In this document: positions 19,651 to 56,140 of the stretch, piece after piece
How positions within the stretch are numbered: position 1 is the first letter of the stretch
Layout of the letters: each line of letters opens with the position of its first letter
NCBI GenBank assembly: GCA_965228475.1
Contig: OZ245817.1
Location: 3,488,001-3,552,000, forward strand
DNA: 64,000 bases
Reading direction: 5' to 3'
DNA from: Myxococcota bacterium
GTDB lineage: Bacteria > Myxococcota_A > UBA9160 > JAFDDA01
The notes under the pieces: generated by a model
Told to the model about the DNA's origin: nothing
The model's database searches: none
What the model saw: only the letters and a program-made list of their open reading frames with translations
Translations under genes and position numbers: made by a program

Positions 19651-19673
19651 GATACGATACGTCTCGTTATTGA
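19651..19673 (+). promoter_or_regulatory. Shared operator/promoter motif, copy A (upstream of ipdA)
   Basis: GATACGATACGTCTCGTTATTGA; 20/23 identical to 56118-56140. Confidence 0.7.
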
Positions 19674-19688
19674 TTTCCAGGGGGCTTC

Positions 19689-20546
19689 GTGGACAAGCGC
19701 ACGAGCGAGGCGGCAGTCGTCTCTGAAATCCGCGACGGCATGACCGTGGGCATCGGCGGTTGGGGCTCGCGCAGGAAGCCCATGTCCCTGGTGCGCGAGA
19801 TCCTGCGCTCGGATCTGAAGGATCTCACGATCGTCTCCTACGGCGGGCCGGACGTCGGCCTGCTGTGCAAGGCGGGCAAGGTCCGCCGCGTCGTCTACGG
19901 CTTCGTCTCCCTCGACTCGATCCCCCTCGAGCCGCACTTCCGTGCCGCGCGCCAGTCCGGCGCCGTCGAAGTGACCGAGCTCGACGAAGGGATGCTGCAG
20001 TGGGGCCTCTACGCCGCCGCCCTGCGACTGCCCTTCCTGCCGACGCGCTCGGGCATGGGCTCGGACGTCCTGAAGTACAACCCGGACCTGAAGCTCGTGC
20101 GCTCCCCCTACGACGACGGCGAGGAGCTCGTGGCCATGCCGGCGCTCCACCTCGACGTGGCGCTCATCCACATGAACCGCGCCGACGAGCGCGGGAACGG
20201 CCAGTACCTCGGCCCCGACCCCTACTTCGACGATCTCTACTGCATGGCCGCGAAGCGCCGCTTCATGTCCTGCGAGAAGATCGTTCCGACGGAAGACCTC
20301 GCGAAGGCCGGGCCGGCCCAGACGCTCGTCATCAACCGCACGATGATCGACGGCGTCGTCGAAGCGCCGGGCGGCGCGCACTTCACCGAGTGCCCGCCCG
20401 ACTACGAACGCGACGAAGCCTTCCAGAAGGAATACGCCATGACGGCCAAGGACCCGGACGATTGGCGGGCCTTCGAGGAGCGCTACCTCTCGCTCGCGAG
20501 CGAGGCCGACTACCAGGCGGCCGTCCGCGCCCGGAGCGGTTCGTGA
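19689..20546 (+). CDS. ipdA: IpdA, CoA-transferase-like ring-cleaving hydrolase alpha subunit (HIP catabolism)
   Basis: GIGGWGSRRKPMSLVR, YGFVSLDSIPLEPHFR, ELDEGM; operon context. Confidence 0.9.
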   Translation: MDKRTSEAAVVSEIRDGMTVGIGGWGSRRKPMSLVREILRSDLKDLTIVSYGGPDVGLLCKAGKVRRVVYGFVSLDSIPLEPHFRAARQSGAVEVTELDEGMLQWGLYAAALRLPFLPTRSGMGSDVLKYNPDLKLVRSPYDDGEELVAMPALHLDVALIHMNRADERGNGQYLGPDPYFDDLYCMAAKRRFMSCEKIVPTEDLAKAGPAQTLVINRTMIDGVVEAPGGAHFTECPPDYERDEAFQKEYAMTAKDPDDWRAFEERYLSLASEADYQAAVRARSGS

Positions 20547-21307
20547 GCGGCGCGACGCGAGCGGAGGTCTGCGTGACGGCGGTGGCCGACGCCTTCCGCG
20601 ACGACGGCGAGGCGCTCGCGAGCGCCTTCGGCTCGGTCCCCACCGTCGGCGTGCGGCTCGCCAAGCTGACCGACGCCCCCGACCTGCTGATGACCGACGG
20701 CATCGCCTACCTGCGCGGCGACGTCGCGAGCCTCTCGGGCGAGGACGCGCACGAGCCCGTCGTCGAGGGCTGGCTGCCCTTCCGCAAGGTCTTCGACCTG
20801 CTCTGGTCCGGGCGGCGACACGTGATCATGACCGCCAGCCAGATCGACCGCTTCGGCAACCACAACTTCGCCTGCATCGGCGACTACGCGAAGCCGAAGG
20901 CCCAGCTCCTCGGCATGCGCGGCGCGCCGGGCAACACGATCCACCACGCCACGAGCTACTGGGTGCCGAACCACAGCCCGAAGGTCTTCGTCGAAGAGGT
21001 CGACGTCGTCTCGGGCGTGGGCAACGACCGCGCGCGGGCTCTGGGCGAGGCCGGCTCGCGCTTCCACGATCTGCGGCGCGTGATCTCGAACCTCGCCGTC
21101 TTCGACTTCGCGCCCGAGGACGGCGCCATGCGCCTCGTCTCCGTTCACCCGGGCGTGAGCGTCGACGAGGTCGTCGAGCAGACGGGCTTCGCCCTGGACG
21201 TCGACGGTGACGTCCCCGAGACGCGGCTCCCGAGCGAATCCGAGCTCACCCTGATCCGCGAGCGCATCGACCCGCGCGGCTTCACCGGCCGCGAAGTCCC
21301 CGCCTGA
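20543..21307 (+). CDS. ipdB: IpdB, beta subunit
   Basis: TRAEVC, VEGWLPFRKVFD, RGAPGNT..HATSYWVPNHS; GTGA-coupled to ipdA. Confidence 0.88.
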   Translation: MSGATRAEVCVTAVADAFRDDGEALASAFGSVPTVGVRLAKLTDAPDLLMTDGIAYLRGDVASLSGEDAHEPVVEGWLPFRKVFDLLWSGRRHVIMTASQIDRFGNHNFACIGDYAKPKAQLLGMRGAPGNTIHHATSYWVPNHSPKVFVEEVDVVSGVGNDRARALGEAGSRFHDLRRVISNLAVFDFAPEDGAMRLVSVHPGVSVDEVVEQTGFALDVDGDVPETRLPSESELTLIRERIDPRGFTGREVPA

Positions 21308-21314
21308 GGCCCCC

Positions 21315-22376
21315 GTGACCTCTCCCCTCCACACCCCGCTCTGCGACCTGCTCGACGCGCGCTACCCGATCGTGCAGACGGGCATGGGCTGGGTGGCGAC
21401 ACCGGAGCTCGTGGCGGCGGTGAGCAACACCGGCGCCTTCGGCTTCCTCGCCGCGGCGACGATCCCGCCGGGCGAGGTCGAGGACGCGATCGTCCAGACC
21501 CAGGCGCTGACCGACCGCCCCTTCGGCGTGAACTTCCTGATGGACGCACCGGGCGCCGACGTCATCGTCGCGGCGCTGGTCCGCCAGGGCGTGAAGGCCG
21601 CCGGCTACAACCGGGCCCCGAGCGCGGAGCTCATCGGCACGCTCAAGGAGGCGGGCATCGTCTGCATCCCGACCTGCGGCGCCGTGAAGCACGCGGTGAA
21701 GGCCCAGAAGCTCGGTGCGGACGCCATCATCGTCCAGGGCGGTGAGGGCGGCGGGCACACCGGCTCCGTCCCGACCTCCCTGCTCGTCTCCGCCTGCGCC
21801 GACGCCGTCGACGTTCCGGTACTCGCCGCCGGCGGCTTCCGCGACGGCCGCGGGCTCGTCGCGGCCCTGGCCTTCGGCGCGGCCGGCGTCGCCATGGGCA
21901 CGCGCTTCCTGCTCACCAAGGAGAGCCCGGTTCCCGCGCGCACGACGGACCGCTACCTCGAGGCCGGCGTCGAGGACGTCACGGTGACGACGCGTATCGA
22001 CGGCCTGCCCCAGCGCGTGGTCACGAACGAACTCCTGCGGCGGCTCGAGGGCGCGAACCCCCTCGCCGCCTACTGGCTCGCCCTGCGCAATGCCCTCGCC
22101 CTACGCAAGGAAACGGGCGCGTCGCTCGTCGAACTCCTGCGCTCGGGCCTCGCCATGCGCCGGAACGAACGGCTCTCGCGCACGCAGATGCTCATGGCCG
22201 CCAACGCCCCGATGCTCGCGAAGCGGGCCATGACCGACGGCGACCCCATCGGGGGTTATCTGCCGAGCGGCACCGTCACCGGACTGATCGAGGACCGGCC
22301 GAGCTGCGCCGAGCTCGTGCAGCGCATCGTCACCGAAGCCGAGAAGACGCTCGGCCAGCTCTCGGGAGGCAACTGA
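21315..22376 (+). CDS. ipdC: IpdC-like enoyl-CoA reductase (nitronate monooxygenase family)
   Basis: PIVQTGMGWVA, QGGEGGGHTG, AAGGFRDGRGLVAALA; follows ipdAB. Confidence 0.85.
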   Translation: MTSPLHTPLCDLLDARYPIVQTGMGWVATPELVAAVSNTGAFGFLAAATIPPGEVEDAIVQTQALTDRPFGVNFLMDAPGADVIVAALVRQGVKAAGYNRAPSAELIGTLKEAGIVCIPTCGAVKHAVKAQKLGADAIIVQGGEGGGHTGSVPTSLLVSACADAVDVPVLAAGGFRDGRGLVAALAFGAAGVAMGTRFLLTKESPVPARTTDRYLEAGVEDVTVTTRIDGLPQRVVTNELLRRLEGANPLAAYWLALRNALALRKETGASLVELLRSGLAMRRNERLSRTQMLMAANAPMLAKRAMTDGDPIGGYLPSGTVTGLIEDRPSCAELVQRIVTEAEKTLGQLSGGN

Positions 22377-23158
22377 TGACCGGCACCAGCACCGCGCCCA
22401 TGACCGGCATTCGCACCGAGGTTTCGGGCGGCGTCGCCCAGCTCGTGATCGACAACCCGCCGGTGAACGCCCTCGGCGTGGCGGGCTGGCGCGCCTTCGC
22501 CGAAGCGATGACGGCGCTCGGCCTGCGCGAGGACGTGAACTGCGTCGTGATCCGTGCCGAAGGCCGCGGCTTCCAGGCGGGTGTCGACGTGAAGGAGCTC
22601 GCCGAGGACGGGACCAAGATCGTCGAGGTGAACCGCGGCTGCTACGACAGCTTCGCCGCCATCTACGACTGCCCGGTGCCCGTGATCTCGGCGGTCCACG
22701 GTTTCTGCCTCGGCGGCGGAATCGGCATCTCCGGCGCCTCGGACATCGTCGTGGCCTCCGAGGACGCGACCTTCGGCCTGCCCGAGATCGACCGCGGCGC
22801 CCTCGGCGCGGCGACGCACCTGATGCGCCTGGTCGGGATGCAGAAGACGCGGCGCATGCTCTACACCGGCGAATCGATCGACGCGCGCGAGATGCTGCGC
22901 CTCGGTGCCGTGGAATCCGTCGTCCCGCGCGAGAAACTCCTCGACGAAGCCATGGCCCTGGCCCGGAACATCGCCGGCAAGAGCCCGAAGGCGCTCCGCC
23001 TGGCGAAGTGGTCGCTCAACGGAATCGAGCTGCTCGACGTGAAGGAGAGCTACCGCTACGAGCAGGGCTTCACCCTCGAGCTCTACACCTCGCCGGACTC
23101 CCAGGAAGCCCGCGACGCCTTCGTCGAGAAGCGCGACGCGAAGTTCGAGCAGGATTGA
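22376..23158 (+). CDS. echA20: EchA20-like enoyl-CoA hydratase
   Basis: NPPVNAL, AGVDVKEL, LPEIDRGALGAATHL, SYRYEQGFT. Confidence 0.87.
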   Translation: MTGTSTAPMTGIRTEVSGGVAQLVIDNPPVNALGVAGWRAFAEAMTALGLREDVNCVVIRAEGRGFQAGVDVKELAEDGTKIVEVNRGCYDSFAAIYDCPVPVISAVHGFCLGGGIGISGASDIVVASEDATFGLPEIDRGALGAATHLMRLVGMQKTRRMLYTGESIDAREMLRLGAVESVVPREKLLDEAMALARNIAGKSPKALRLAKWSLNGIELLDVKESYRYEQGFTLELYTSPDSQEARDAFVEKRDAKFEQD

Positions 23159-23165
23159 GGCCGAG

Positions 23166-24335
23166 ATGGATCTCTCGTACAGCCCGTCACAGCAGGCCTT
23201 CCGCAAGGAAGCGCGCGCCTGGCTCGAAGCCAACGTGCCGAAGGAGCCCCTCGCGTCCTTCGATACGGAAGCCGGATTCGCCGCCCACCGCGCGTGGGAA
23301 GAGAAGCTCCACGCCGGCGGCTTCGCCATGGTGCCCTGGCCCGTCGAGTACGGCGGGCGCGGAGCGGACCTGCTCGAGTGGCTGGTCTTCGAAGAGGAGT
23401 ACTACCGCGCCGGCGCGCCGGGCCGCGTGAACCAGAACGGGATCTTCCTGCTCGGCCCGACCATCATGGAGTACGGGACGCCCGAGCAGAAGGCGCGCTT
23501 CCTGCCGAAGATGGCCTCGAGCGAGGAGGTCTGGTGCCAGGGTTGGAGCGAGCCGAACGCCGGGAGCGACATGGCCGCGATCCAGAGCACGGCCGTCCGC
23601 GACGGCGACTGCTTCGTCGTGAACGGCCAGAAGACCTGGGCCTCACGCGGCGCCTTCGCCCACTGGCTCTTCGGCCTCTTCCGTACGGACCCGGAAAGCA
23701 GCCGGCACCGCGGCCTCTCCTTCCTTCTCGTTCCACTCGATCTGCCGGGCATCACCGTGCGGCCCATCCAGAAGATCAACGGCAAGGCCGCCTTCGCCGA
23801 GGTCTTCTTCGACGACGTGCGCGTTCCCGCCGAACACCTGCTCGGCCCCGAGGGCGACGGCTGGAAGGTCGCCATGGCGACGGCCGGCTTCGAACGCGGC
23901 CTCATGCTGCGCAGCCCTGCGCGCTTCCAGAGCACCGCCGACCGCCTGCTGCGCCTCTACCGTGAGACCGTGGCGCGCGGCGACGCCGTCTCCCCGAGCC
24001 TCCGCGAGCGCGTCGCCCGCACCTGGATGGACGCCGAGGCGTACACGCTCAACACCTACCAGACCGTCTCGAAGCTCCTGGCCGGGGGCTCGATCGGCGC
24101 CGAGGCCAGCCTGAACAAGATCTTCTGGTCCGAGCTCGACGTCCGCATGCACGAGCTCGGCCTCGAGCTGCTCGGGCCGCGCGCGGAACTCCTGCCCGGA
24201 GCACCGGCCGCCGGCGACGTCGGAAGCTGGCTCGACGGCTTCATCTTCGCGCTCTCCGGCCCGATCTACGCCGGAACCAACCAGATCCAACGCAACATCA
24301 TCGCCGAGCGCATCCTCGGCCTGCCGCGGAAGTAG
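23166..24335 (+). CDS. fadE31: Acyl-CoA dehydrogenase, FadE31-like
   Basis: FEEEYYRAGAPGRVNQNGIFLLGPT, FERGLMLRSPARF, IYAGTNQIQRN. Confidence 0.8.
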   Translation: MDLSYSPSQQAFRKEARAWLEANVPKEPLASFDTEAGFAAHRAWEEKLHAGGFAMVPWPVEYGGRGADLLEWLVFEEEYYRAGAPGRVNQNGIFLLGPTIMEYGTPEQKARFLPKMASSEEVWCQGWSEPNAGSDMAAIQSTAVRDGDCFVVNGQKTWASRGAFAHWLFGLFRTDPESSRHRGLSFLLVPLDLPGITVRPIQKINGKAAFAEVFFDDVRVPAEHLLGPEGDGWKVAMATAGFERGLMLRSPARFQSTADRLLRLYRETVARGDAVSPSLRERVARTWMDAEAYTLNTYQTVSKLLAGGSIGAEASLNKIFWSELDVRMHELGLELLGPRAELLPGAPAAGDVGSWLDGFIFALSGPIYAGTNQIQRNIIAERILGLPRK

Positions 24336-24339
24336 CCCC

Positions 24340-25392
24340 ATGGACTTCGACTTCAGCGAAGACCAGCGCATGCTCCAGCAGACCGTCGCGGACTTCCTCG
24401 GCGGCGAGTGCCCACCCGAGCGCGTGCGCGCGGGCTGGGAGACGGAGACCGGGCGCGACGACGGCTTCTGGCGAAGCCTCGCCGAGATCGGCCTGCCCGG
24501 ACTGCTCGTCCCGGAAGAACATGGCGGCCTCGGCCTCGAGGAAACCGACCTCGTCCTCGCCCTCGAAGAGACGGGCCGCGTGGCACTCGCCGAGCCCGTC
24601 GTTCCGACGAGCGTCGGCGTGGGGATGCTGCGCGAGATCGGCGGCGACCTCGCCGCGAGCTGGCTGCCCCGCGTCGCCGAGGGAGAGGCCCGCCTCGCCG
24701 TCGGCCTTCCCGAGAGCCCCTTCGTCGCCGATGCCCATGTCGCCGGTCTCCTGCTGATCGCCTCCGAGGACGCCATCCACGCCATCCCGGGAAGCGAGGC
24801 CACGCTCGAGGCCCAGGCCTCGAACGACGGCTCGCAGCGTCTCTTCCGCGTGCAGCAAGGCAGCGGCGAGCTCGTCGCGACTGGCGACGACGCGCGAAAC
24901 CTCGCCCGCGCCGCCCTCGACCGCGGCGCCCTGTGCTGCGCCGCCGAAGCCCTCGGCGTGGCCGCGCGCTTGATCACCCTCGCCGCCGAGTACGCCGCCC
25001 AGCGCAACCAGTTCGGCGTCCCGATCGGGAGCTTCCAGGCCGTGAAGCATCTGCTGGCGGACGAGATGGTGAAGCTCGAGTACGCGCGCTCGCACGTCTA
25101 CCGCGCCGCCCACTCCGTGGCGAACGCCGCAGGCACCCGAGCGGCCGACGTCTCGATGGCCAAGCTCGCCGCCTGCGAAGCCGCGACCGAGGCCGCGAAG
25201 ACTTCGCTCCAGGTGCACGGCGCGATCGGATACACCTACGAGCAGGACGTGCACGTCTGGATGAAGCGGGCCTGGTCCCTCGACCTCGCCTACGGAACGA
25301 GCGTCTTCCACCGCGAGCGCCTGTGCAGCGCGGTGATCGACGGCACCCTCGAAGCACGCCCCTTCGGATACGAGCCGCCCGGCCTGAGTTAG
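24340..25392 (+). CDS. fadE32: Acyl-CoA dehydrogenase small subunit, FadE32-like
   Basis: Shortened ACAD with QFGVPIGSFQAVKHLLAD, LQVHGAIGYTYEQD; adjacent to fadE31. Confidence 0.75.
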   Translation: MDFDFSEDQRMLQQTVADFLGGECPPERVRAGWETETGRDDGFWRSLAEIGLPGLLVPEEHGGLGLEETDLVLALEETGRVALAEPVVPTSVGVGMLREIGGDLAASWLPRVAEGEARLAVGLPESPFVADAHVAGLLLIASEDAIHAIPGSEATLEAQASNDGSQRLFRVQQGSGELVATGDDARNLARAALDRGALCCAAEALGVAARLITLAAEYAAQRNQFGVPIGSFQAVKHLLADEMVKLEYARSHVYRAAHSVANAAGTRAADVSMAKLAACEAATEAAKTSLQVHGAIGYTYEQDVHVWMKRAWSLDLAYGTSVFHRERLCSAVIDGTLEARPFGYEPPGLS

Positions 25393-25417
25393 GCTTTCGC
25401 AGCGGCAAGGAGACCCC

Positions 25418-25858
25418 ATGGCGAAGAAGCGCGTCCCGGCCCAGGAGGGCTGGTTCACCCTCGAAGACGAGCCTCACCTGATCGGCCTGCGCGACAAGGA
25501 GAGCGGCTCCTGCTTCTTTCCGAAGGACGTCGCGATCTCGCGCGCGCCCGGCTACGCCGACGCCGAGCTCGAAGAAGTCGAGCTCTCGCGCACGGGCAAG
25601 CTCTGGTCCTGGACGACGAACCACTACGCGCCGCCCGAGCCCTACGTCTCGCCCGACCCGTTCGTGCCCTACACGGTGGCCGCGGTCGAGCTGAGCGTGG
25701 AGCGCATGGTGGTACTCGGCCAGCTCGACGACGGCGTCGACCTCGAGGCCCTCGAGGTCGGCCAGGAGATGGAGCTCGTGCTCGGCACCCTCTACGAGGA
25801 CGACGAGAACGAGTACATGGTGTGGAAGTGGCGCCCGGCGGGCGCGGAGGCCGCGTGA
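25418..25858 (+). CDS. DUF35 OB-fold acyl-CoA-binding protein
   Basis: LSRTGKLWSWTTNHYAPPEPY, VPYTVAAVEL, VGQEMEL; coupled to the thiolase-like gene. Confidence 0.85.
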   Translation: MAKKRVPAQEGWFTLEDEPHLIGLRDKESGSCFFPKDVAISRAPGYADAELEEVELSRTGKLWSWTTNHYAPPEPYVSPDPFVPYTVAAVELSVERMVVLGQLDDGVDLEALEVGQEMELVLGTLYEDDENEYMVWKWRPAGAEAA

Positions 25859-27045
25859 TGGTGGGCGAAGTCGCGATTCTCGGAGCGGGCATGCACCCCT
25901 GGGGCAAGTGGGGGCGGAACTTCGTCGAGTACGGCGCCCACGCCATCAAGGCGGCCCTCGCCGACGCCGGCCTCGAGTGGAAGGACGTCGAGTTCCTCGC
26001 CGCCGGCGAGACCATCCGCAACGGCTACCCGGGCTACGTCGCCGCCTCGAGCTTCTCCCAGGCGATGGGATTCCAGGGCATCCCGATCGCGAGCTGCTAC
26101 GCCGCCTGCGCCAGTGGGACCCAGGCCATCGAGGCCGCGCGCACGCGCATCCTCGCCGGCCTGTGCGACGTCGCGGTGGTCGCCGGTGCCGACACGACGC
26201 CGAAGGGTTTCCTCGCCCCGAACAAGGGCGAACGTCAGCTCGACCCGGACTGGCTGCGCTTCCGCCTGCTGGGCGCGACCAACCCGACCTACTTCGGCCT
26301 CTACGCACGACGGCGCATGGAGCTCTACGGCGCCGAGGAGCGGGACTTCGCGCGCGTGAAGGCCAAGAACAGCCGCGTCGGCGCGACCAACCCGAACGCC
26401 CGCTACAAGAAGGTCTTCACCGAGGACGAGGTGCTCGCTTCTGCGCTCGTGGCCGACCCGCTGCGCCTGTTCGAGATCTGCGCGACGAGCGACGGCGGCG
26501 CCGCCCTGGTGCTCACCTCGCTCGACTTTGCGCGCAAGCACGCCTCGGAGTTCGTGCGCATCGCCGGCGTCTCGACGGTCACCCCGACCTACCCGAACGT
26601 CGTCGTCGACATGCCGAACTTCGCGGCGGACTCGACCGTCGGCATCGCGGCGCCGGACCGCGGCTTCAAGGACTCGATCGCCTACGCCGCCTACGAGCAG
26701 GCCGGCCTCGGGCCCGAGGACATGTCCCTGGCCGAGGTCTACGACCTCTCCTCCGCCCTCGAGCTCGACTGGTACGAAGAGATCGGGCTGTGCAAGCGCG
26801 GCGAGGCCGAGCGCCTGCTGCGCGACGGCGCCACCGAGGTCGGCGGCCGCATCCCGGTGAACCCGAGCGGCGGTCTCGGCGCGTTCGGAGAGGCCGTGCC
26901 CGCCCAGGCGATCGCCCAGGTCTGCGAACTCACGTGGCAGCTGCGCGGCCAGGCCGGCGAGCGCCAGGTCGCCGGAGCCAAGGCCGGCATCACCGCGAAC
27001 CAGGGCCTGTTCGGCCACGGCTCGTCCGTCCTCTGTGTGAAGTAA
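25858..27045 (+). CDS. SCP2-type thiolase-like 'lipid-transfer protein'
   Basis: GMHPWGKW, AACASG, TSDGGAA, LAEVYD, VNPSGGL..FGEAVPAQA; TGATG coupling. Confidence 0.88.
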   Translation: MVGEVAILGAGMHPWGKWGRNFVEYGAHAIKAALADAGLEWKDVEFLAAGETIRNGYPGYVAASSFSQAMGFQGIPIASCYAACASGTQAIEAARTRILAGLCDVAVVAGADTTPKGFLAPNKGERQLDPDWLRFRLLGATNPTYFGLYARRRMELYGAEERDFARVKAKNSRVGATNPNARYKKVFTEDEVLASALVADPLRLFEICATSDGGAALVLTSLDFARKHASEFVRIAGVSTVTPTYPNVVVDMPNFAADSTVGIAAPDRGFKDSIAYAAYEQAGLGPEDMSLAEVYDLSSALELDWYEEIGLCKRGEAERLLRDGATEVGGRIPVNPSGGLGAFGEAVPAQAIAQVCELTWQLRGQAGERQVAGAKAGITANQGLFGHGSSVLCVK

Positions 27046-27054
27046 GGAGCGATC

Positions 27055-28206
27055 ATGCCCGAGGCCTACATCATCGATGCCGTCCGCACGCCCGTCGGAA
27101 AGCGCGGCGGCGGGCTCGCCACCGCCCACTCGGCGGATCTCGGCGCCCACGTGCTGCGCGCCCTCGTCGAGCGCACGGGTGTGGACGCCGGCGCCGTGGA
27201 GGACGTCGTGTTCGGCTGCTGCGACACCGTCGGCACCCAGGCCGGCGACATCGCACGCACCTGCTGGCTCGCCGCGGGGCTGCCCGAGCACGTGCCCGGC
27301 GTGACGATCGACCGCCAGTGCGGATCCTCCCAGCAGTCGGTCCACTTCGCGGCCCAGGGCGTCATGAGCGGGGTCCAGGATCTGGTGATCGCCGGCGGCG
27401 TCCAGAACATGAGCCAGATCCCGATCTCCTATGCCATGACGTCCGCCGAGCCGCTCGGCATGACGGACCCGTTCTCGGGCTCGAAGGGCTGGACGGAGCG
27501 CTACGGCACCCAGGAAGTCTCCCAGTTCCGCGGCGCCGAGATGATCGCGGAGAAGTGGGACGTCTCGCGCGAAGACATGGAAGCCTTCGCCCTGGCGAGT
27601 CACGAGCGCGCGCTCCGGGCCATCGACGAAGGGCGCTTCGCGAACGAGATCGTGCCCTACGGCGACGTCACGACGGACGAGGGCCCGCGGCGCGGCACGA
27701 GCCTCGAGAAGATGGCGAAGCTCGAGCCGCTCTCTCCGGGAGGACGGATCACCGCCGCCCTCGCGAGCCAGATCTCCGACGGAGCGACGGCGCTCCTCGT
27801 GGCTTCGGAGCAGGCCGTGAAGGACCACGGCCTTTCGCCGCGCGCCCGGATCCACCATCTCTCGGTGCGCGCCGACGACCCGATCTACATGCTCACCGCG
27901 CCGATCCCGGCGACGAAGCACGCTCTCGAGAAGACCGGCATGAAGCCCTCGGACATCGACCTGGTCGAGATCAACGAGGCCTTCGCCTCGGTCGTGCTCG
28001 CCTGGCAGAAGGAGACGGGCTGGGACCTCGACCGCGTGAACGTGAACGGCGGCGCGATCGCCCTCGGCCATCCGATCGGCGCGACGGGAACCCGGCTCAT
28101 GGCGACGCTCCTGAACGAGCTCGAGCGCACCGGCGGCCGCTACGGAATGCAGACCATGTGCGAGGGCGGTGGCCAGGCCAACGTCACGATCATCGAGAGG
28201 CTCTAG
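27055..28206 (+). CDS. fadA6: Acetyl-CoA acyltransferase (thiolase), FadA6-like
   Basis: [31 protein letters not shown]. Confidence 0.87.
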
Positions 28207-28208
28207 GA

Positions 28209-29111
28209 ATGGGAATCTGTGAAGACCGCGTCGTCATCGTGACCGGCGCCGCGCGCGGCATCGGGCGCGAGCACGCCCTGGCCTTCGCCCGCGAGGGCGC
28301 GAAGGTCGTCGTGAACGACATCGGCGTCGAGCTCGACGGCTCGGGCGGCGGCGAAGGCCCGGCCCACGAGGTCGCCGAGGCCATCCGCGCCGGGGGTGGC
28401 GAGGCGATCGTGAACGGCGCCGACGTCTCGAGCTGGGACGAGACCGGGGCCCTCGTGCGGCAGACCCTCGAGGCCTTCGGGCGGCTCGACGCCGTCGTCA
28501 ACAACGCCGGCTTCGTGCGCGATCGCATGTTCGTCTCCTGCAGCGAAGACGAGTGGGACGCGATCGTGAACGTCCACCTGAAGGGCCACTTCTGCCTCGC
28601 GCGCCACGCGGCCGAGCACTGGCGCAACGAGGCCAAGGCCGGGAACCCCGTCGACGCCCGCATCATCAACACGAGTTCGGGCGCCGGGCTCCAGGGCAGC
28701 ATCGGGCAGAGCAGCTACTCGGCCGCCAAGGCCGGCATCGCCACGCTCACCTTGATCCAGGCCGCGGAGATGGGCCGTTACGGCGTGACCGCGAACGCGA
28801 TCGCCCCCTCCGCCCGCACCCGCATGACGGAGGAGGTCTTCGCGGACATGATGAAGGCCCCCGACGAAGGCTTCGACGCGATGCACCCCGGGAACATCTC
28901 GCCCCTGGTCGTCTGGCTCGGGAGCGCGGAATCGAAGGAGGTGAGCGGCTGCGTGTTCGAAGTCGCGGGCGGCGAGATCTCGATCGCCGACGGCTGGCGG
29001 ACCGGCCCAAAGGTCGACAAGAACGCGCGCTGGGCGCCGGACGAGGTCGGCGCCGCCGTGCACGACCTGCTCGCGAAGCGCGTCGAGCCCCAGAAAGTCT
29101 ACGGCACCTAG
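28209..29111 (+). CDS. SDR oxidoreductase (Rv3548c/ScdE-like)
   Basis: TGAARGIG, NNAGFVRDRMF, NTSSGAGLQGSIGQSSYSAAK. Confidence 0.9.
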   Translation: MGICEDRVVIVTGAARGIGREHALAFAREGAKVVVNDIGVELDGSGGGEGPAHEVAEAIRAGGGEAIVNGADVSSWDETGALVRQTLEAFGRLDAVVNNAGFVRDRMFVSCSEDEWDAIVNVHLKGHFCLARHAAEHWRNEAKAGNPVDARIINTSSGAGLQGSIGQSSYSAAKAGIATLTLIQAAEMGRYGVTANAIAPSARTRMTEEVFADMMKAPDEGFDAMHPGNISPLVVWLGSAESKEVSGCVFEVAGGEISIADGWRTGPKVDKNARWAPDEVGAAVHDLLAKRVEPQKVYGT

Positions 29112-29118
29112 CGCTCCC

Positions 29119-30261: not shown

Positions 30262-30262
30262 C

Positions 30263-44262: not shown

Positions 44263-44276
44263 CGCTCTCAGGATTC

Positions 44277-44323
44277 GCCCGGGAGGCCTGGCCTCCCGGG
44301 CCCCGGAGGCCCAGCCTCCGGGG
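44277..44323. other. Twin perfect GC hairpins between the RRM gene and the next ORF
   Basis: GCCCGGGAGGC-CTG-GCCTCCCGGGC and CCCCGGAGGC-CCA-GCCTCCGGGG; no U-tract. Confidence 0.7.
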
Positions 44324-44358
44324 AGTCGTCTGGTTCGGAATCTCGTCGGGGGGCAACC

Positions 44359-44568: not shown

Positions 44569-44569
44569 C

Positions 44570-44785
44570 GTGGCGGTCCCGGCCCGCCGCACGGAGCCCG
44601 CACGAGACGAACGCGTCGCGCCCAAGCGCGTGACGCAACTGGTCCCGTGCGATGGTCACGCCTTCGATCCGGACCTCGTCTGCCCCTGTGGCATCACCTG
44701 GTCCGAGCATCAGGCCACCCCGCGGGCCTGCACGCGGAGCGCCCAGCGCAACCGCGCGGGCGACGGCACCGGCGAAGACCGGTAG
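44570..44785 (+). CDS. Small Cys/His-rich hypothetical protein
   Basis: CDGH...CPCG..W.EH...C; high GC3; starts 1 nt after the preceding stop. Confidence 0.5.
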   Translation: MAVPARRTEPARDERVAPKRVTQLVPCDGHAFDPDLVCPCGITWSEHQATPRACTRSAQRNRAGDGTGEDR

Positions 44786-45661: not shown

Positions 45662-45669
45662 GGGGGCTC

Positions 45670-46455: not shown

Positions 46456-46474
46456 GCGGTCCTCGCTGCGGAGT

Positions 46475-47671
46475 TCATGCGGGCCTCGGTTCGCGCGGCA
46501 GCCCGAGCGAACGCTCCGCGATGAGGTTGCGCTGGATCTGGTTCGTGCCCGCGTAGATCGTGTCCGAGCGGGTGAAGAGGAAGAGGCGCTGGAGCCGGGA
46601 GAGGCCGTCGGCGTCCGTCACTTCGGCCTCGGCGCCGAGCACGTCCATGGCGAGCTTGCCGAGCTCCCGGTGCCAGGTGGCCCAGAAGATCTTGGTGATC
46701 ATCGCGCCGCGCGGCGGCGCGGCATCGGCCGAGTGCGAGACCGTGCGCAGGGCGTTGTAGCGCTGGATGCGCAGGCCCATCCAGGCCTGGGCGATTCGCT
46801 GGCGGATCCGCGGGTCGCGGGCCTTGCCGTTGCGCTTCGCGATCTCGATCACCTGGTCGAGCTCGTTCTGGAAGAGCATCTGCTGGCCGAGCGTCGAGGC
46901 GCCGCGCTCGAAGGCGAGCGTCGCGTTCGCGACCTTCCAGCCGCCGTTCACCTCGCCGACGACGTTCTCGCGCGCGGTCCGCACGCCGTTGAAGAAGACC
47001 TCGCTGAACTCGCTGTCGCCGGTGATCTGGCGGATCGGGCGGATCTCGATGCCCTCGGCGTCCATCGGGACCAGCAGGTAGGAGATGCCGGCCTGCTTCG
47101 GCTTCGCCTCCGGGTCGGTCCGGCACAGCACGAAGCACCAGTCGCTCCACTGGGCCCAGGAGGTCCAAACCTTCTGGCCGTCGATCACCCACTCGTCGCC
47201 ATCGAGCACCGCGCGGGTCTGCACGTTCGCGAGATCCGAGCCCGCGTTCGGTTCGGAGTAGCCCTGGCACCAGAACTCCTTGCCCCTCAGGATCGGCGGA
47301 AGGAAGCGCCGCTTCTGCTCGTCGCTCCCGCAGAGCAGGACGGTCGGGCCGAGCAGCCCCTCACCGATGTGCCCCATTCGGCCGGGCGCGTGGGCGCGGG
47401 CGTACTCCTCGTAGAAGATCATTTGCTGGGAAAGCGGAAGGTCCCGGCCGCCGACGTCCGCGCCCGGAATCTCCCGGGGCCAGCCGAGGCCGATCCAGCC
47501 GGCCGCGCCAAGGGCGCGCTCGAAGGCCTTGCGCTCCTCGACGAAGGCGTGTTCGTCGCCGGGGCCGCCCCGGCCGCGCAGCTCGGCGAACTCGCCGGCC
47601 AGGGCGTGCTCGAGCCAGCCGCGCACCTCGCTTCGGAAGTCTTCGTCTTCCTTCGAGAATCGGACGTCCAG
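46475..47671 (-). CDS. fadE30: Acyl-CoA dehydrogenase FadE30/IpdE1-like; probable CTG start
   Basis: LRGRGGPGDEH, WCQGYSEPNAGSDLA, FERGASTLGQQ, FLFTRSDTIYAG; GGAGG-N7-CTG. Confidence 0.83.
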   Translation of the reverse strand: MDVRFSKEDEDFRSEVRGWLEHALAGEFAELRGRGGPGDEHAFVEERKAFERALGAAGWIGLGWPREIPGADVGGRDLPLSQQMIFYEEYARAHAPGRMGHIGEGLLGPTVLLCGSDEQKRRFLPPILRGKEFWCQGYSEPNAGSDLANVQTRAVLDGDEWVIDGQKVWTSWAQWSDWCFVLCRTDPEAKPKQAGISYLLVPMDAEGIEIRPIRQITGDSEFSEVFFNGVRTARENVVGEVNGGWKVANATLAFERGASTLGQQMLFQNELDQVIEIAKRNGKARDPRIRQRIAQAWMGLRIQRYNALRTVSHSADAAPPRGAMITKIFWATWHRELGKLAMDVLGAEAEVTDADGLSRLQRLFLFTRSDTIYAGTNQIQRNLIAERSLGLPREPRPA

Positions 47672-47727: not shown

Positions 47728-47755
47728 AATACGATACGATACGATCCGTATGCAA
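47728..47755. promoter_or_regulatory. Shared operator/promoter motif, copy B (fadE30/fadD3 divergon)
   Basis: AATACGATACGATACGATCCGTATGCAA; ATACG-N8-CGTAT inverted arms. Confidence 0.65.
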
Positions 47756-47790: not shown

Positions 47791-49359
47791 TTGGAATCCA
47801 CGATCCCCCGCCTGCTCTTCGCCTCGGCCGAGCGCTTCGGCGCTGCCCACGCCATCGAGGACGGCCCGACCACGCTCACCTTCCGCGAGCTCGCGGAGCG
47901 CAGCACCCGCGCTTGCCGGGCGCTCCTCGCCTTCGGCCTCGAACCCGGGGAGCGGGTCGCGATCTGGGCACCGAACCGTTGGGAGTGGGTCGTGGCCGCG
48001 CTCGGCGTGCAGATGGCCGGCGGCGCGATCGTCACCCTGAACACACGCTACAAGGGCAGCGAAGCGGCCTACCAAATTCGCAAGTGCCGCACGCGCGTGC
48101 TGTTCACCGTCGGCGAGTTCCTCGACTTCCGCTACGTAGACGCCCTGGCCGAGCAGGACGTGCCGGCCCTCGAGCGCATCGTCACCTTCGACGGCGATGC
48201 GGCCGGGGCGCAGTCCTTCGAGGCCTTCCTCGCCGAGGGCGACGCGGTCCCGGCCGAGGCCGCCCGCGAGCGCGCGCTCTCCGTCGATCCGGAGGACGTC
48301 GCGGACCTGATCTTCACCTCGGGCACCACCGGCCACCCGAAGGCCGTGATGGCCACGCACCACCAGAACCTGCGGAGCTTCGAGGTGTGGAGCACCGTCG
48401 TCGGCCTGCGCGAAGGCGACCGCTACCTGATCGTGAACCCGTTCTTCCATTCCTTCGGGTACAAGGCCGGCTGGCTCGCCTGCCTGATGATGGGCGCGAC
48501 CGCCCTGCCCCACCCGGTCTTCGACGTGGGCCAGGTGCTCGAACGCATCGGCAAGGAGCGCATCACGGCGATCCCGGGCGCGCCGAGCCTCTACCAGTCC
48601 CTGCTCGCCCACCCGGACTACGCGCGATTCGACCTCTCGAGCCTGCGCCTCGCGGTGACCGGCGCCGCGCCGATCCCCGTCGAACTGATCGAACGCATGC
48701 GCACGGAGCTCGGCTTCGAGACCGTCGTGACGGCCTACGGCTTGACCGAAGCGACGGGCACCGTCTCCATCTGCGACCCGACGGACGACCCGGAGACGAT
48801 CTCGACGACCTCCGGCAAGCCCATCCCCGACATCGAGGTGAAGTGCGTCGACGAAGCGGGCCGTGAAGTTCCGCGCGGCGAGCCGGGCGAGATCTGGGTG
48901 CGCGGCTACAACGTCATGAAGGGCTACTTCGAGGACGAAGCCGCCACGCGCGAGGCGATCGACCCGGAGGGCTGGCTCCACACCGGTGACATCGCCACGA
49001 TGGACGAGCGCGGCTACCTGACCATCACCGACCGCCTGAAGGACATGTTCATCATGGGCGGCTTCAACTGCTATCCGGCGGAGATCGAGAGCCTGCTCTT
49101 CGAGATGCCGGGCGTCGCCCAGGCCGCGGTGATCGGCGTCCCGGACGAGCGCATGGGCGAGGTCGGCATGGCCTTCGTCGTCCCGAACGCCGGCGCCGAG
49201 CTCGACGAGGCCGGGGTCGTCGCCTGGGCACGCGAGCACATGGCGAACTTCAAGGTGCCCCGGCACGTCGCGATCCTCGAAGCGCTGCCGATGAACCTCT
49301 CGGGCAAGGTGCTGAAGAACGAGCTGCGCGAGGAAGCGGCGCGCCGGCTCGGGGCCTGA
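47791..49359 (+). CDS. fadD3: FadD3-like acyl-CoA (HIP-CoA) synthetase
   Basis: NTRYKG.EA, FTSGTTGHPK, NPFFHSFGYKAG, GGFNCYPAEIE; divergent from fadE30-ipdF as in mycobacteria. Confidence 0.83.
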   Translation: MESTIPRLLFASAERFGAAHAIEDGPTTLTFRELAERSTRACRALLAFGLEPGERVAIWAPNRWEWVVAALGVQMAGGAIVTLNTRYKGSEAAYQIRKCRTRVLFTVGEFLDFRYVDALAEQDVPALERIVTFDGDAAGAQSFEAFLAEGDAVPAEAARERALSVDPEDVADLIFTSGTTGHPKAVMATHHQNLRSFEVWSTVVGLREGDRYLIVNPFFHSFGYKAGWLACLMMGATALPHPVFDVGQVLERIGKERITAIPGAPSLYQSLLAHPDYARFDLSSLRLAVTGAAPIPVELIERMRTELGFETVVTAYGLTEATGTVSICDPTDDPETISTTSGKPIPDIEVKCVDEAGREVPRGEPGEIWVRGYNVMKGYFEDEAATREAIDPEGWLHTGDIATMDERGYLTITDRLKDMFIMGGFNCYPAEIESLLFEMPGVAQAAVIGVPDERMGEVGMAFVVPNAGAELDEAGVVAWAREHMANFKVPRHVAILEALPMNLSGKVLKNELREEAARRLGA

Positions 49360-49367
49360 ACCGCTCG

Positions 49368-50879
49368 GTGGCGGACGGGGCCCTCGATACGTCGAGTCTC
49401 TGGCGGCTCGTCGAGACGCGCGCGGCCACGACCCCCGAAGCGCTCTTCGCCGTCGACGAGGCCGGCCGCGCCCTCACCTTCGCCGAGTACCACGAGCGCG
49501 CGCTCGGCGTCGCCGCCGCCCTCCACGCCGAAGGGCTCTCCTCCGGCGACGTCGTGTCCTGGCAGCTCCCGACGAACCTCGAAGCCCTGATCCTCTCCGC
49601 GGCCCTCGCCCGCGTCGGCGCCGTGCAGAACCCGATCCTCCCGATCTATCGCCAGCGCGAGGTCGGCTTCGTCGTGAGGCAGGCGGGCGCGAAGCGCCTC
49701 GCCGTCCCCGAGACGTTCCGCGGCTTCGCCCACGGCGCGATGGCGCGTGCGATCGCGGAGGACCTCCCCGGCCTGGAGCCGTGGATCGTCGGCGAGACGC
49801 TCCCCACGGGCGACCCGTCGAGCCTTCCGCCGTACGAAGCCCCCGGGCCGCGCGACACCCGCTTTCTCTTCTACACGTCGGGAACCACGGCGGATCCGAA
49901 GGGCGCCCGGCATTCGGACGCGACGCTGCTGGCGGTCGGCCGCGCTCTACACGAACGGCTCGCACTCGAGAGCGACGATCGCATCGCCCTCGTCTTTCCT
50001 TTCACCCACGTCGGCGGCGTCGGCTGGCTGCTCGCAGGGCTCCTTGCCGGCTGCGCGCAGATCGTGATTCCGACCTTCGGACCGGAGGCGATCTCGGTGC
50101 TGGCCCGCCACGGCGTCACCCAGGGAACGGCGGGCACGGCCTTCCACCAGGCCTACCTCGCCGCCCAGCGCGAGCGCGGCGGGGAACCGGTCTTCCCGCG
50201 CATCCGCACCTTCCCCGGCGGCGGCGCCCCGAAACCTCCCGCCCTGCACTACGAGATCAAGCGCGAGCTCGGCGGCGCCGGCATCGTCTCCGGCTACGGC
50301 CTCACCGAATGCCCCATCGCGACCATGGGCGCCGCCGACGACCCGGACGAGCGCCTCGCCGAAACCGAAGGCCGCGCCACCCGCGGCGTCGAGATCCGCA
50401 CGAGCCCCGAAGGCGAGATCCGCCTGAAGGGCCCGCAGCTCTGCCTCGGCTACCTCGACCCTGCCCTCGACGCCGCCGCCTTCGACGAAGCGGGCTTCTT
50501 CAAGACCGGCGACCTCGGCCACCTCACCGAGGACGGCTACCTCGTCGTCACCGGGCGACTGAAGGACGTCATCATCCGCAAGGGCGAGAACATCAGCGCC
50601 AAGGAGATCGAAGACCTCCTGCACGAGCACCCGAAGGTCGCGGAGTGCGCGGTCGTCGGCCTGCCCGACCCCGCGAGCGGCGAACGCGCCTGCGCCGTGG
50701 TGGTCGCCTCGGATCCGAGTTCGCCCCTCTCCTTCGAAGAGATGGAGAGCTTCCTCCGCGAGCGCGAGCTGATGACCCAGAAGATCCCGGAGCAGCTCGA
50801 GACCCTCGACGTGCTCCCCCGGAACCCGACGGGCAAGGTCCTGAAGCATGCGCTCCGGGAACGCTTCGAGCGCGCCTAG
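49368..50879 (+). CDS. AMP-binding acyl-CoA ligase
   Basis: YTSGTTADPKG, GYGLTE, TGD, IIRKGENISAKEIE. Confidence 0.9.
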   Translation: MADGALDTSSLWRLVETRAATTPEALFAVDEAGRALTFAEYHERALGVAAALHAEGLSSGDVVSWQLPTNLEALILSAALARVGAVQNPILPIYRQREVGFVVRQAGAKRLAVPETFRGFAHGAMARAIAEDLPGLEPWIVGETLPTGDPSSLPPYEAPGPRDTRFLFYTSGTTADPKGARHSDATLLAVGRALHERLALESDDRIALVFPFTHVGGVGWLLAGLLAGCAQIVIPTFGPEAISVLARHGVTQGTAGTAFHQAYLAAQRERGGEPVFPRIRTFPGGGAPKPPALHYEIKRELGGAGIVSGYGLTECPIATMGAADDPDERLAETEGRATRGVEIRTSPEGEIRLKGPQLCLGYLDPALDAAAFDEAGFFKTGDLGHLTEDGYLVVTGRLKDVIIRKGENISAKEIEDLLHEHPKVAECAVVGLPDPASGERACAVVVASDPSSPLSFEEMESFLRERELMTQKIPEQLETLDVLPRNPTGKVLKHALRERFERA

Positions 50880-52079: not shown

Positions 52080-52083
52080 GGCC

Positions 52084-52961: not shown

Positions 52962-53552
52962 TCAGGTCTCGGCGAGCAGGCTCCGAACGGCCTGCGCGAT
53001 GCTGCGCTTCGTACCTTCGAGGGGCAGGCCCTGATGCACCCGCAGATGATCGAAGGTCTCGAAGGAGAGGAGCGCATCGAGTGCCGCGATCAACTCGGGC
53101 GAAGCGCCCTCGAGCTCCGGCGCAAATGCGGCCCGCATCTGCTCCCGGAGCTGCGCCCGGGTCTCCCGGTCGCGCTCGCGGTCTTTCGGGAGCGGCCGGG
53201 CCGAACGCAGCACGGCGCGCCGGAGGGGTCTCACGATCTCCGCGGCCTCCGCCCGGCGGTCGACGAGGTCCGCCACGCGGTCGGCGAGGTCCCCCTCGAA
53301 CGGTCCGCGCAGGAGGATCGGGGCGACCTGGCCGCGCACGTGTGCGGTGACCGCCTCGCTCATCCCGTCGAGATCCCCGAAGTGGCGGAAGAGCGTGCTC
53401 AGGCTGACCCCGGCCTCAGCGGCGATCCGCTCGGCCGTGATCTCGATCTCCGGGTTCGAGAGCGCGCGCACGACCGCCTCGATCATCCGCTCCCGGCTCC
53501 GCTGGGAGCGGAGATGGCGGCCATCCTCGCGGCCCGGAGTGCTATCGGACAC
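52962..53552 (-). CDS. TetR/AcrR family regulator
   Basis: DGRHLRSQRSRE, IAAEAGVSLSTLFRHF. Confidence 0.9.
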   Translation of the reverse strand: MSDSTPGREDGRHLRSQRSRERMIEAVVRALSNPEIEITAERIAAEAGVSLSTLFRHFGDLDGMSEAVTAHVRGQVAPILLRGPFEGDLADRVADLVDRRAEAAEIVRPLRRAVLRSARPLPKDRERDRETRAQLREQMRAAFAPELEGASPELIAALDALLSFETFDHLRVHQGLPLEGTKRSIAQAVRSLLAET

Positions 53553-53619: not shown

Positions 53620-53644
53620 ACTTGATACTTCCCTGGAGGATCTC

Positions 53645-54995: not shown

Positions 54996-55003
54996 GGCGG
55001 CCG

Positions 55004-55408
55004 TCAATCCTCTCGCGACGATTGCGGGAACTGCGGCAGGTCGTCACCGATCTCGACCCAACCGGCCTTCGACGCGACGAAGATGTGGGCATCGACCCGG
55101 ACGTCGGCGTCGTCTTCGAGCGTGCCGAGCGCAACGTCGACGAGGTCCGGGGTGCGAGCATCCGCGAAGAGGAGTTTCGCGCCGCAGACGCCGCAGAAAG
55201 ACCGGGTCACGCGCTCCGAAGAGGGGTAGTGGGCGAGGCGGTCCTCGCCGGCCTCGAACACGAGCGCCTCCCGGGTGACGGAGCCATACGTGCCGAAGGC
55301 CGAGCCGTGTCCCTTGCGGCACATCGAACAGTGGCAGTGGGTCACCCGCGAGAACGGCTCGGCGACGCGGTAGCGGATGGCTCCGCAAAGGCAGCTTCCT
55401 CGGGCCAT
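55004..55408 (-). CDS. GFA (glutathione-dependent formaldehyde-activating) family protein
   Basis: GSCLCG, CHCSMCRK, FCGVCG. Confidence 0.92.
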   Translation of the reverse strand: MARGSCLCGAIRYRVAEPFSRVTHCHCSMCRKGHGSAFGTYGSVTREALVFEAGEDRLAHYPSSERVTRSFCGVCGAKLLFADARTPDLVDVALGTLEDDADVRVDAHIFVASKAGWVEIGDDLPQFPQSSRED

Positions 55409-55448
55409 GGGCCGAGGGTATCGCTTCGGGCAGCGAGGCGAAGTCTCG

Positions 55449-56039
55449 CTAGGCGCTGCGCAGGCCCTTCAGGGCGAGATCGACGATCGGGGCCACCATC
55501 TTCGGCTGGAGCTTCGCGCCGGTGAAGAACAGGCGGACGGCGATCGGGCCGACGATCAAGTCGGCGGCGAGCTCGAGGTCGAGCCCCTTCGGGAGTTCGC
55601 CGCGGGCGACGCCGCGCTCGAGGGCGGCGGTCAGCGGGCGGCGCCTGCCCTTCAGCACCGGGTCGAAGAGCTCGGAGAAGGTGTCGTTGTGAGCGCGCTC
55701 CCCGGCCAGGCTCGGGAGGACCGTGGCCAGGGGTGTCGCGTTGAAGAGCTGGAGGTAGCCGCGCAGCATGGCCTTCAGGTCTTCGGCGAGATCGCCGGTA
55801 TCGGCGTCTTCGAGCCGCGGGAGGCCGCCGAACGCCTCGACCACGAGGGGGAGCTTCGAGGGCCAACGCCGGTAGATCGTGGCCTTCCCGACCCCCGCAC
55901 GCTGGGCCACGCCTTCGACGGTCAGGGCCGAGAAGCCGACCTCGGAGAGCAGCTCGAGGGTGGCGTCGAGGATGGCCTGATGGGCCTCCTCGCTCCGGGG
56001 CCGCCCCGCGCTACCACTGGGACCATTCGCCTCTGCCAC
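55449..56039 (-). CDS. TetR/AcrR family regulator, candidate steroid-regulon repressor
   Basis: GRPRSEEAHQAILDATLELL...AGVGKATIYRRWPSK. Confidence 0.93.
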   Translation of the reverse strand: MAEANGPSGSAGRPRSEEAHQAILDATLELLSEVGFSALTVEGVAQRAGVGKATIYRRWPSKLPLVVEAFGGLPRLEDADTGDLAEDLKAMLRGYLQLFNATPLATVLPSLAGERAHNDTFSELFDPVLKGRRRPLTAALERGVARGELPKGLDLELAADLIVGPIAVRLFFTGAKLQPKMVAPIVDLALKGLRSA

Positions 56040-56117
56040 GTCGATTCCTCAATCAGGGCGGTCACTTGCCTGCGAAAGGCGGGGTCCGAGAAGGGGCTCC
56101 CCCCACCGTCGCATTAC

Positions 56118-56140
56118 GATACTATACGTTCCGTTATTGA
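56118..56140 (+). promoter_or_regulatory. Shared operator/promoter motif, copy C
   Basis: GATACTATACGTTCCGTTATTGA between the TetR gene and the flavoprotein operon. Confidence 0.7.

Follow-up and report, generated by a model that had tools for sequence, protein, structure and literature searches.

Regulators of steroid catabolism known outside actinobacteria are few, and the list of such regulators has been called 'very short' (PMC8700777). KstR2 (Rv3557c), a TetR repressor of mycobacteria and rhodococci, has mycobacterial sites at the promoter of the ipdAB operon, between fadE30 and fadD3 and at its own promoter, and its orthologues share more than 50% identity (PMC3068626); in Table 1 of PMC5380842, the kstR2 row is without entries for Comamonas and S. 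denitrificans. In Caenibius tardaugens the edc operons are under the repressor EdcR (EGO55_13520), a protein with the C-terminal domain TetR_C_11 that estrone and estradiol release from its sites (PMC8700777). A third protein, Ms6564 of M. smegmatis (PDB 4JL3), binds as a dimer of dimers at about 180 degrees (PMC4150764) and has been footprinted on the palindrome ACGAGACG-N3-CGTCTCGT (PMC3273814). In this study, we analysed a 64,000-nucleotide stretch (the window) of an uncultured Myxococcota bacterium (GTDB lineage Myxococcota_A; UBA9160; JAFDDA01; contig OZ245817.1, positions 3,488,001 to 3,552,000 of the forward strand), in which a TetR_C_11 repressor gene (tetR) and a repeated 21-bp palindrome lie among genes for the breakdown of steroid rings C and D, that is of HIP (methylhexahydroindanedione propionate). 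Judged from sequence comparison, it is very probable that this palindrome is the operator of the repressor encoded at 55449-56039, which would govern six promoter regions and be released by a steroid-type molecule.

TetR repressors of steroid catabolism are known as a kind, and so is this type of operator. Searches of the open literature, covering text of PMC12882949, PMC8085986 and PMC5380842 among others, turned up no publication that deals with this regulator or with the control of steroid genes in this order, and none that pairs an EdcR-like protein with operons of both the edc and the HIP type in Myxococcota; a 2026 comparative preprint mentions neither Myxococcota nor TetR.

The palindrome and the TetR_C_11 protein

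A sequence-only reading of the window had reported three AT-rich sites, A, B and C, at 19651, 47733 and 56118. These coordinates are correct, and so is the reported likeness of A to C, which differ at 3 of 23 positions; the true unit, however, begins 2 bases later than the strings given and is a 21-bp palindrome, TACGATACG-N3-CGTATCGTA (Table 1). The core shared by the sites, GATACnATACGnnnCGT, occurs in the genome (a single contig, 96% complete, of 5,006,157 bases and 70.5% GC) at A, B and C and nowhere else. The palindromic matrix built on these three finds five genome sites of at least 20 bits and none in a 2-Mb order-4 Markov simulation. Three further sites, D, E and F, lie 25-85 kb past the window end, all of them intergenic and 35-111 bp from a gene end. 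The scan of the genome and its relatives that had been proposed was carried out, and the sites proved rare at home and kept in relatives. A held-out matrix, whose 27 training sites exclude any that lie upstream of ipdA, fadE30 or tetR, reaches at least 14 bits in 9 of the 4,448 upstream windows of this genome, 8 of them in the six regions that hold sites A to F, and at least 17 bits in 8, all within these regions (3 of the 8 hold training sites); the spread over many unrelated promoters that the sequence-only reading had named as a danger to its proposal was not seen.

At A, B and C a second and weaker register of the palindrome lies 5 bp upstream, and D too has a second register 5 bp away. 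When sites from relatives were pooled, 55 of the 102 had it; in 300 controls with redrawn flanks and spacer the mean was 15 and the highest count 25. Such a spacing fits two dimers sitting on opposite faces of the DNA.

The earlier reading had also taken a TAnnAT hexamer overlapping each site as a possible -10 element. A strict consensus scan of the three regions gave no sigma-70 promoter at A, B or C, and the promoter geometry of relatives indicates that the left-arm hexamer is generally not the -10. Before ipdA, the best -10 of the relatives falls at positions 21-26, which is the palindrome's downstream edge or just past it, in 10 of 14 cases, and before the acyl-CoA dehydrogenase gene g3160, downstream of site D, it falls at position 22 in 13 of 18; before g3192, downstream of site E, it falls inside the left arm, at position 6, in 6 of 7. 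The palindrome thus fills the spacer between a TTTAC(A/T)-like -35 and the -10 at g3160 and ipdA, and covers the -10 behind TTGACG at g3192 in five of seven relatives. Since the same motif stands at two positions relative to the -35 and -10, the geometry argues for an operator and for repression. It could be held that the motif is merely a promoter element, either a -10 context or the promoter of a dedicated sigma factor, because the arms of the palindrome hold TAnnnT hexamers and the best -10 before g3192 lies within one of them. We regard this as extremely unlikely for a motif that is palindromic, is limited to 8 upstream windows, shifts its place relative to the -35 and -10 from locus to locus and equals a footprinted TetR operator; the plain -10 explanation was rejected on rarity, on the failed sigma-70 scan and on the variable promoter geometry.

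The tetR gene is divergent from site C, as had been stated. Its product scores 89.3 bits with TetR_C_11 (cut-off 32) and is the only protein of the genome above that cut-off. Ms6564 is among its best PDB matches: the recognition helices are nearly the same, the Ms6564 palindrome is nearly the one found here, and dimer-of-dimers binding fits the 5-bp second register. Outside the DNA-binding domain, however, the match to Ms6564 is weak (56 bits overall), and Ms6564 is reported as a broad activator of DNA-repair genes (PMC3273814), in contrast to the steroid-pathway repressor proposed here. The general form ACGnnACG-N3-CGTnnCGT is present at the promoter of the window's own tetR, and also within 350 bp of 14 of its 19 close relatives and of 29 of 61 distant ones (35-47% identity) in other phyla. 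On these subfamily grounds the TetR protein and the site would be a cognate pair, and the operator type is one already known, since it nearly equals the footprinted Ms6564 site. From the earlier proposal, in which one TetR autoregulates and controls all three loci, the shared operator, the adjacent non-KstR2 TetR and autoregulation are retained; the motif itself is neither a -10 context nor of a new type. The other TetR genes of the window, at 14192-14833 (TetR_C_13), 16799-17365 and 52962-53486, belong to other families or show no C-terminal family and were set aside.

Relation to KstR2 and EdcR

Sites A, B and C occupy the same three positions as the mycobacterial KstR2 sites, and the systems are further alike in the TetR nature of the repressor and in the HIP gene families under it (PMC3068626, PMC5380842). 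They differ in the operator, which in KstR2 is the 14-bp AnCAAGnnCTTGnT in contrast to 21 bp here, in the phylum and in the regulon, which is wider here; HIP-CoA (coenzyme A) sensing, a trait of KstR2, is here no more than a possibility. The KstR2 motif, which the sequence-only reading did not see, has no exact copy in the genome and none with one mismatch in the window. We take TetR_C_24 to be the C-terminal family of KstR2, whereas the window TetR is a TetR_C_11 protein, so that its earlier description as a non-KstR2 regulator stands. No KstR2-named chain is among the best 60 of its 73 PDB matches, and 2IBD, presumably the R. jostii KstR2, gives 24 bits. Nor was a true KstR2 orthologue, the possibility of which had been raised, recognised in the genome, where the best TetR_C_24 match reaches 39 bits, is unlinked and matches no KstR2-named chain in the PDB down to E 1e-7. 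The NCBIfam model for KstR, NF033703, gives 37.8 bits (cut-off 280) and covers the DNA-binding domain only. KstR2 and KstR were therefore rejected as readers of the sites on family, PDB and motif evidence. An exact KstR-like 14-bp palindrome does occur in the window, at 17573-17586, between a divergent TetR gene (16799-17365) and a PQQ dehydrogenase gene. It is 1 of 32 in the genome, and is probably that TetR's own site, or there by chance.

These results also bear on the idea that the TetR protein binds its own promoter (C) only, and that A and B are recognised by a different regulator, for example a KstR2 orthologue. The genome encodes dozens of TetR proteins, in relatives the autoregulatory sites deviate slightly (one arm ACGGAACG), and two relatives, G016 and G025, have sites without a detected orthologue. 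However, no second TetR_C_11 protein passes the cut-off, the KstR2 searches failed as just described, C is recovered by a matrix trained in its absence, and the remaining sites by one trained on A, B and C. We consider this division of labour quite improbable.

EdcR offers a closer comparison. A distant match of the window TetR in Croceicoccus estronivorus MH-B5 (L021) has neighbours in the gene order of the edc operon OpA (PMC7793797), and the published EdcR palindrome, TnnCnnTACnAnTnGTAnnGnnA, is present at that locus; because of these two features we treat the MH-B5 protein as an EdcR homologue. It is the window TetR's best match in MH-B5, with 40% identity over 190 residues and no gaps, although other members of the subfamily also lie at 35-47%. 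Trees make the window TetR and EdcR sister groups, though weakly (support 92 in a quick tree of 104 rows; a careful tree is described below), and the two may be orthologues; over the ligand-binding half the EdcR homologue comes just ahead of actinobacterial relatives (79 vs 77 bits). Both systems combine TetR_N with TetR_C_11 (PMC8700777, PMC7793797), share the operator core C-nn-TAC-N5-GTA-nn-G, often have a P450 gene adjoining the regulator and have homologous beta-oxidation operons as targets, control here being suggested by the sites that head these operons. They are unlike in the inner operator, G-N3-C here vs nAnTn in EdcR, and the full EdcR operator has no match with up to one mismatch here, only the core being shared. 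EdcR has been shown to control two edc operons while the HIP genes form a separate cluster, whereas here one set of sites spans both; in addition, there is no EdcB, no close EdcA (31%) and no close EdcT here. The proposal of a freshly recruited KstR2 stand-in is accordingly not upheld, and the window TetR is better read, as far as these comparisons go, as a relative of EdcR, itself a repressor of a steroid pathway.

A narrower version of our interpretation keeps the operator assignment and makes the regulator a KstR2 analogue, with HIP-CoA or a nearby C/D-ring CoA ester as inducer and the edc-like operons as feeders. It refines the preferred explanation and does not exclude it. The sites stand where KstR2 sites stand, and fadD3 and enzymes acting on CoA esters dominate the regulon. 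In contrast, the C-terminal family is not that of KstR2, the nearest characterized relative, EdcR, senses free estrone and estradiol (PMC8700777), and the strongest sites (25-33 bits, all three in the training set) stand at the edc-like and UbiA-like genes, the HIP genes having 19-21 bits. An inducer from the end of the pathway would also need to switch on its own upstream steps. We see this version as possible, with the balance of evidence on the other side, and HIP-CoA as one candidate effector among several.

Reach and conservation of the proposed regulon

The regulon of three loci that had been proposed is probably correct for the HIP loci and too narrow as a whole: sites also stand before operons homologous to those of edc A/B-ring beta-oxidation. 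In a one-way best-match comparison covering 50 kb of the MH-B5 genome, g3192-g3196, behind site E, are the collinear best matches of five collinear OpA genes (55, 46, 69, 52 and 39% identity), in order the hydroxyacyl-CoA dehydrogenase, an HMG-CoA-synthase-like protein, a thiolase, a BadI-like hydrolase and a hydratase. The site-D operon, g3160-g3156, encodes an acyl-CoA dehydrogenase, a family III CoA-transferase, two MaoC-like proteins and a second dehydrogenase; g3160/g3161, g3158, g3157, g3156 and g3186 match OpB or OpA genes (31-53%), the CoA-transferase excepted. The EdcC-like oxidoreductase g3186 (53%) lies between the two operons, and in several relatives is on the same contig as both. 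A homologue of the UbiA-family gene behind site F is found within 10 kb of the TetR gene in 2 of 19 loci.

Three details of this region were noted on the way. In the g3193 protein (G000:C1:3614403-3616972; L084:10403-12972), whose edc counterpart carries no assigned step in the published pathway, an HMG-CoA-synthase/FabH-like domain is joined to a zinc-ribbon/OB domain of the ChsH2 type; the thiolase follows, an arrangement that recalls PhlABC and the archaeal thiolase/HMG-CoA synthase scaffolds. Between g3161 and g3160, upstream of site D, the DNA is very AT-rich (G000:C1:3577425-3577495) and may hold the site of a second regulator. Among P450 and CoA-ligase genes lies the gene for a 1,279-aa protein (G000:C1:3633562-3637401; L085:11562-15401, minus strand) with FGGY kinase, 2-hydroxyacid dehydrogenase, SCP2 sterol-transfer and class II aldolase parts.

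The sites, their rarity and conservation, the gene families and the family of the regulator are seen in the sequences; binding, repression, the two-dimer mode and a steroid substrate we infer. Without inducer, the repressor would occupy the promoter, either lying in the spacer between -35 and -10 or masking the -10 itself, and many sites would take up two dimers, placed 5 bp apart and on opposite DNA faces. It would shut the ipdAB operon; fadE30 and fadD3, whose operons diverge at site B; tetR together with the KstD-like/P450 operon that faces it; the two edc-homologous operons (C1:3577414 and C1:3613465); and the UbiA-family gene (C1:3629036). Release would come from a steroid or from one of its ring-opened intermediates, and removal of the A/B-ring remnant and breakdown of the C/D rings would be switched on together.

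Single-copy orthologues of the regulator (66-86% identity) are present in 21 of 30 relatives of the same order, a 22nd match being a 35% paralogue. The closest relatives of the protein (66-81%) are mostly labelled Myxococcota or Deltaproteobacteria, one is labelled UBA9160 and a few carry other labels, and the repressor and its regulon would thus appear to belong to an uncultured Myxococcota order. With the held-out matrix, a site of at least 15.9 bits within 300 bp of ipdA is present in 16 of 20 relatives (missing in G011, G017 and G025; weak in G019), and within the same distance of fadE30 in 14 of 21 (missing in G004, G008, G011, G019, G025 and G026; 12.8 bits at a cut flank in G018). For tetR, 14 of 21 have the site within 300 bp, three more have it one gene further up, one is cut by a contig end and three have none. 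With the matrix from A, B and C only, a site precedes g3160 in 18 of 22 relatives and lies within 1.5 kb before g3193 in 8 of 15. Of the four relatives without one at g3160, two are cut there, and in the other two g3160 follows the g3193 block in the same orientation. A blind pattern search, from which 40 of about 130 matches were chosen, returned mainly the same operons; some genomes added g3189/g3188 and CoA ligases, and roughly one chosen match in four was without a strong site or a nearby gene start. In G011 (99% complete), ipdA and fadE30 are present, there is no TetR_C_11 protein and neither gene has a site. Presence and absence of TetR and site thus agree in G011; they disagree in G016 and partly disagree in G025.

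Several observations weigh against the proposed regulon. G016 has sites at three loci and no TetR_C_11 protein (88% complete, in 980 contigs), and G025, which has only a 35% paralogue, has a site before g3160 and none before ipdA or fadE30. Among TetR-bearing genomes, G004, G008, G019 and G026 have no site at fadE30, G017 has none at ipdA, where that of G019 is weak (9.3 bits), and in G012, G027 and G030 the 2.5 kb around tetR hold none. Kinship among the relatives also means that the conservation counts are not independent. In this genome, the EdcC-like g3186 and g3178/g3179 lack a site. Promoter hexamers beside the site may partly account for the second register, and the motif is common to the subfamily and therefore by itself no sign of steroid sensing. 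Regarding EdcR, the sister relation is weak (80/76) in a careful tree of 36 rows chosen from the 104, with the long row L195 left out, and the region upstream of edcR in MH-B5 scores only 2.7 bits.

Proposed target genes, ring A and the likely substrate

Table 1. Proposed operators, regulator and target genes (window positions, except sites D to F)
Feature	Position	Strand	Remarks
TetR repressor	55449-56039	-	196 aa; TetR_N + TetR_C_11 (PF16859); proposed operator reader
Operator A	19648-19673	.	Palindrome 19653-19673, second register 19648-19668; 16-40 bp before ipdA; 19.3 / 16.5 bits (held-out matrix)
Operator B	47730-47755	.	Palindrome 47735-47755, second register 47730-47750; between divergent fadE30 and fadD3; 21.3 / 19.8 bits
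Operator C	56115-56140	.	Palindrome 56120-56140, second register 56115-56135; between divergent tetR and KstD-like gene; 18.9 / 14.3 bits
Site D	C1:3577414		Heads g3160-g3156; at least 20 bits (A/B/C matrix)
Site E	C1:3613465		Heads g3192-g3196; 17 bits (A/B/C matrix)
Site F	C1:3629036		Precedes UbiA-family gene; at least 20 bits (A/B/C matrix)
HIP (C/D-ring) operon	19689-31042	+	Names by family and gene order
ipdA	19689-20546	+	HIP operon
ipdB	20543-21307	+	HIP operon
ipdC-like	21315-22376	+	HIP operon
echA20-type hydratase	22376-23158	+	HIP operon
Acyl-CoA dehydrogenases	23166-24335, 24340-25392, 29119-30261	+	HIP operon
OB-fold/lipid-transfer pair	25418-27045	+	HIP operon
fadA6-type thiolase	27055-28206	+	HIP operon
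Two short-chain dehydrogenases/reductases (SDRs)	28209-29111, 30263-31042	+	HIP operon
Luciferase-like oxidoreductase	44795-45661	-	fadE30 operon
ipdF-type SDR	45670-46455	-	fadE30 operon, for which PRK07831 gives 446 bits (cut-off 336)
fadE30-like acyl-CoA dehydrogenase	46475-47626	-	Locus 44795-47626; name suggested by position
fadD3 (HIP-CoA ligase family)	47791-49359	+	PRK07656 FadD3 family, 745 bits (cut-off 657)
Second CoA ligase	49368-50879	+	After fadD3; locus 47791-50879
Divergent operon beyond C	56173-64000	+	Last gene runs past window end
KstD-like flavoprotein	56173-57831	+
SRPBCC/CoxG-like protein	57837-58436	+
Cytochrome P450	58452-59636	+
Unknown protein	59640-60401	+
Luciferase-like oxidoreductase	60407-61312	+
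Major facilitator superfamily (MFS) transporter	61337-62668	+
Enoyl-CoA hydratase-like	62713-63498	+	Named from sequence only
SDR-like	from 63507	+	Named from sequence only

Two of the three loci that had been called steroid-catabolic, ipdA and fadE30/fadD3, are so by their gene families. In the HIP operon the NCBIfam equivalogs PRK07938, PRK07801, PRK07856 and PRK06059 are over their cut-offs, and IpdA matches PDB 6CO6/6CON, which we take to be IpdA structures, at E 1e-104 or better. For the third locus a steroid role is likely, although its KstD-like gene lies below the cut-off (306 vs 789 bits). The best structural match of that protein is the 3-oxosteroid 1-dehydrogenase 7P18, with tyrosines aligning at positions 118, 363 and 536, presumably the catalytic ones. 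The window P450 and EdcA share 31% identity, and in relatives the orthologues of this P450 next to tetR rank with the best EdcA matches (31-36%).

A small RRM (RNA-recognition motif) RNA-binding gene and two short open reading frames are inserted behind the fadE30 operon (43984-44785). Homologues of the unlinked pair g4189/g4190 (sulfotransferase-like and unknown, judged by eye) recur beside the TetR gene in L001, L004, L007, L008, L017 and other loci. The gene that directly follows tetR (55004-55408, minus strand) is of the GFA family, and a gene of the Fae family lies close to site D (G000:C1:3580081-3580602); the idea that the P450 removes C19 as formaldehyde, to which these two had given rise, was dropped, as neither gene was seen beside the regulon in relatives' loci.

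The opening of ring A is less readily assigned. This genome has no EdcB-like gene (no match at E 1e-15), nor have 18 of the 21 TetR-bearing relatives, the other three having one; its best EdcA match is 31-32%. The best scores for the HsaC/TesB dioxygenase (TIGR03213, 64 vs 366 bits) and for HsaA (132 vs 450 bits) are far below their cut-offs, true HsaA being present in 5 of 31 genomes, two of them TetR-bearing. MoCoBD_1, sought for a Mo-dependent AtcA-type hydroxylase, and LigB have no match in this genome, and its three KshA-like Rieske genes are distant matches only. The complete aerobic estrogen, 9,10-seco and anaerobic 2,3-seco routes, each sought with these queries, were thus not found. 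In a separate observation, G025, a relative without the TetR orthologue, has a 46% EdcB-like dioxygenase (G025:C56:2053-2982; L200), a true HsaA and the closest EdcA-like P450 (39%), so that a complete aerobic route within the order is possible.

The missing ring-A enzymes, and the merely distant matches of the KstD-like, KshA-like and P450 genes, could mean that the regulon serves a non-steroid alicyclic or terpenoid substrate through steroid-like enzymes. However, the full HIP-pathway family set passes curated cut-offs, the IpdA match is as strong as given above, and HIP genes are described as common to steroid degraders (PMC5380842); a non-steroid substrate seems to us unlikely. A more speculative extension of the steroid reading, which we put forward only tentatively, is that the regulon outlines an order-wide pathway made of an EdcC-like decarboxylating step, edc-type beta-oxidation and the HIP route, in which ring A would be opened by undescribed chemistry and a novel intermediate of steroid breakdown would be what the repressor senses. 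The divergent KstD-like/SRPBCC/P450/luciferase-like operon would then be the prime candidate for ring-A opening. A tamer alternative is that these bacteria scavenge ring-opened steroid acids from other bacteria, which fits because the regulon has a CoA-transferase and CoA ligases; such acids are reported to be released and to need re-activation with CoA (Ibero et al., PMC7793797).

For this system an operator, its cognate protein (by subfamily) and a conserved list of targets are available together. The regulon marks an uncultured Myxococcota order as probable consumers of steroids or seco-steroids, joins genes for the A/B and C/D rings under what would be one switch, and points to candidate genes for the missing ring-A step. 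As EdcR did, the repressor may yet yield a new steroid-sensing part for biosensors.

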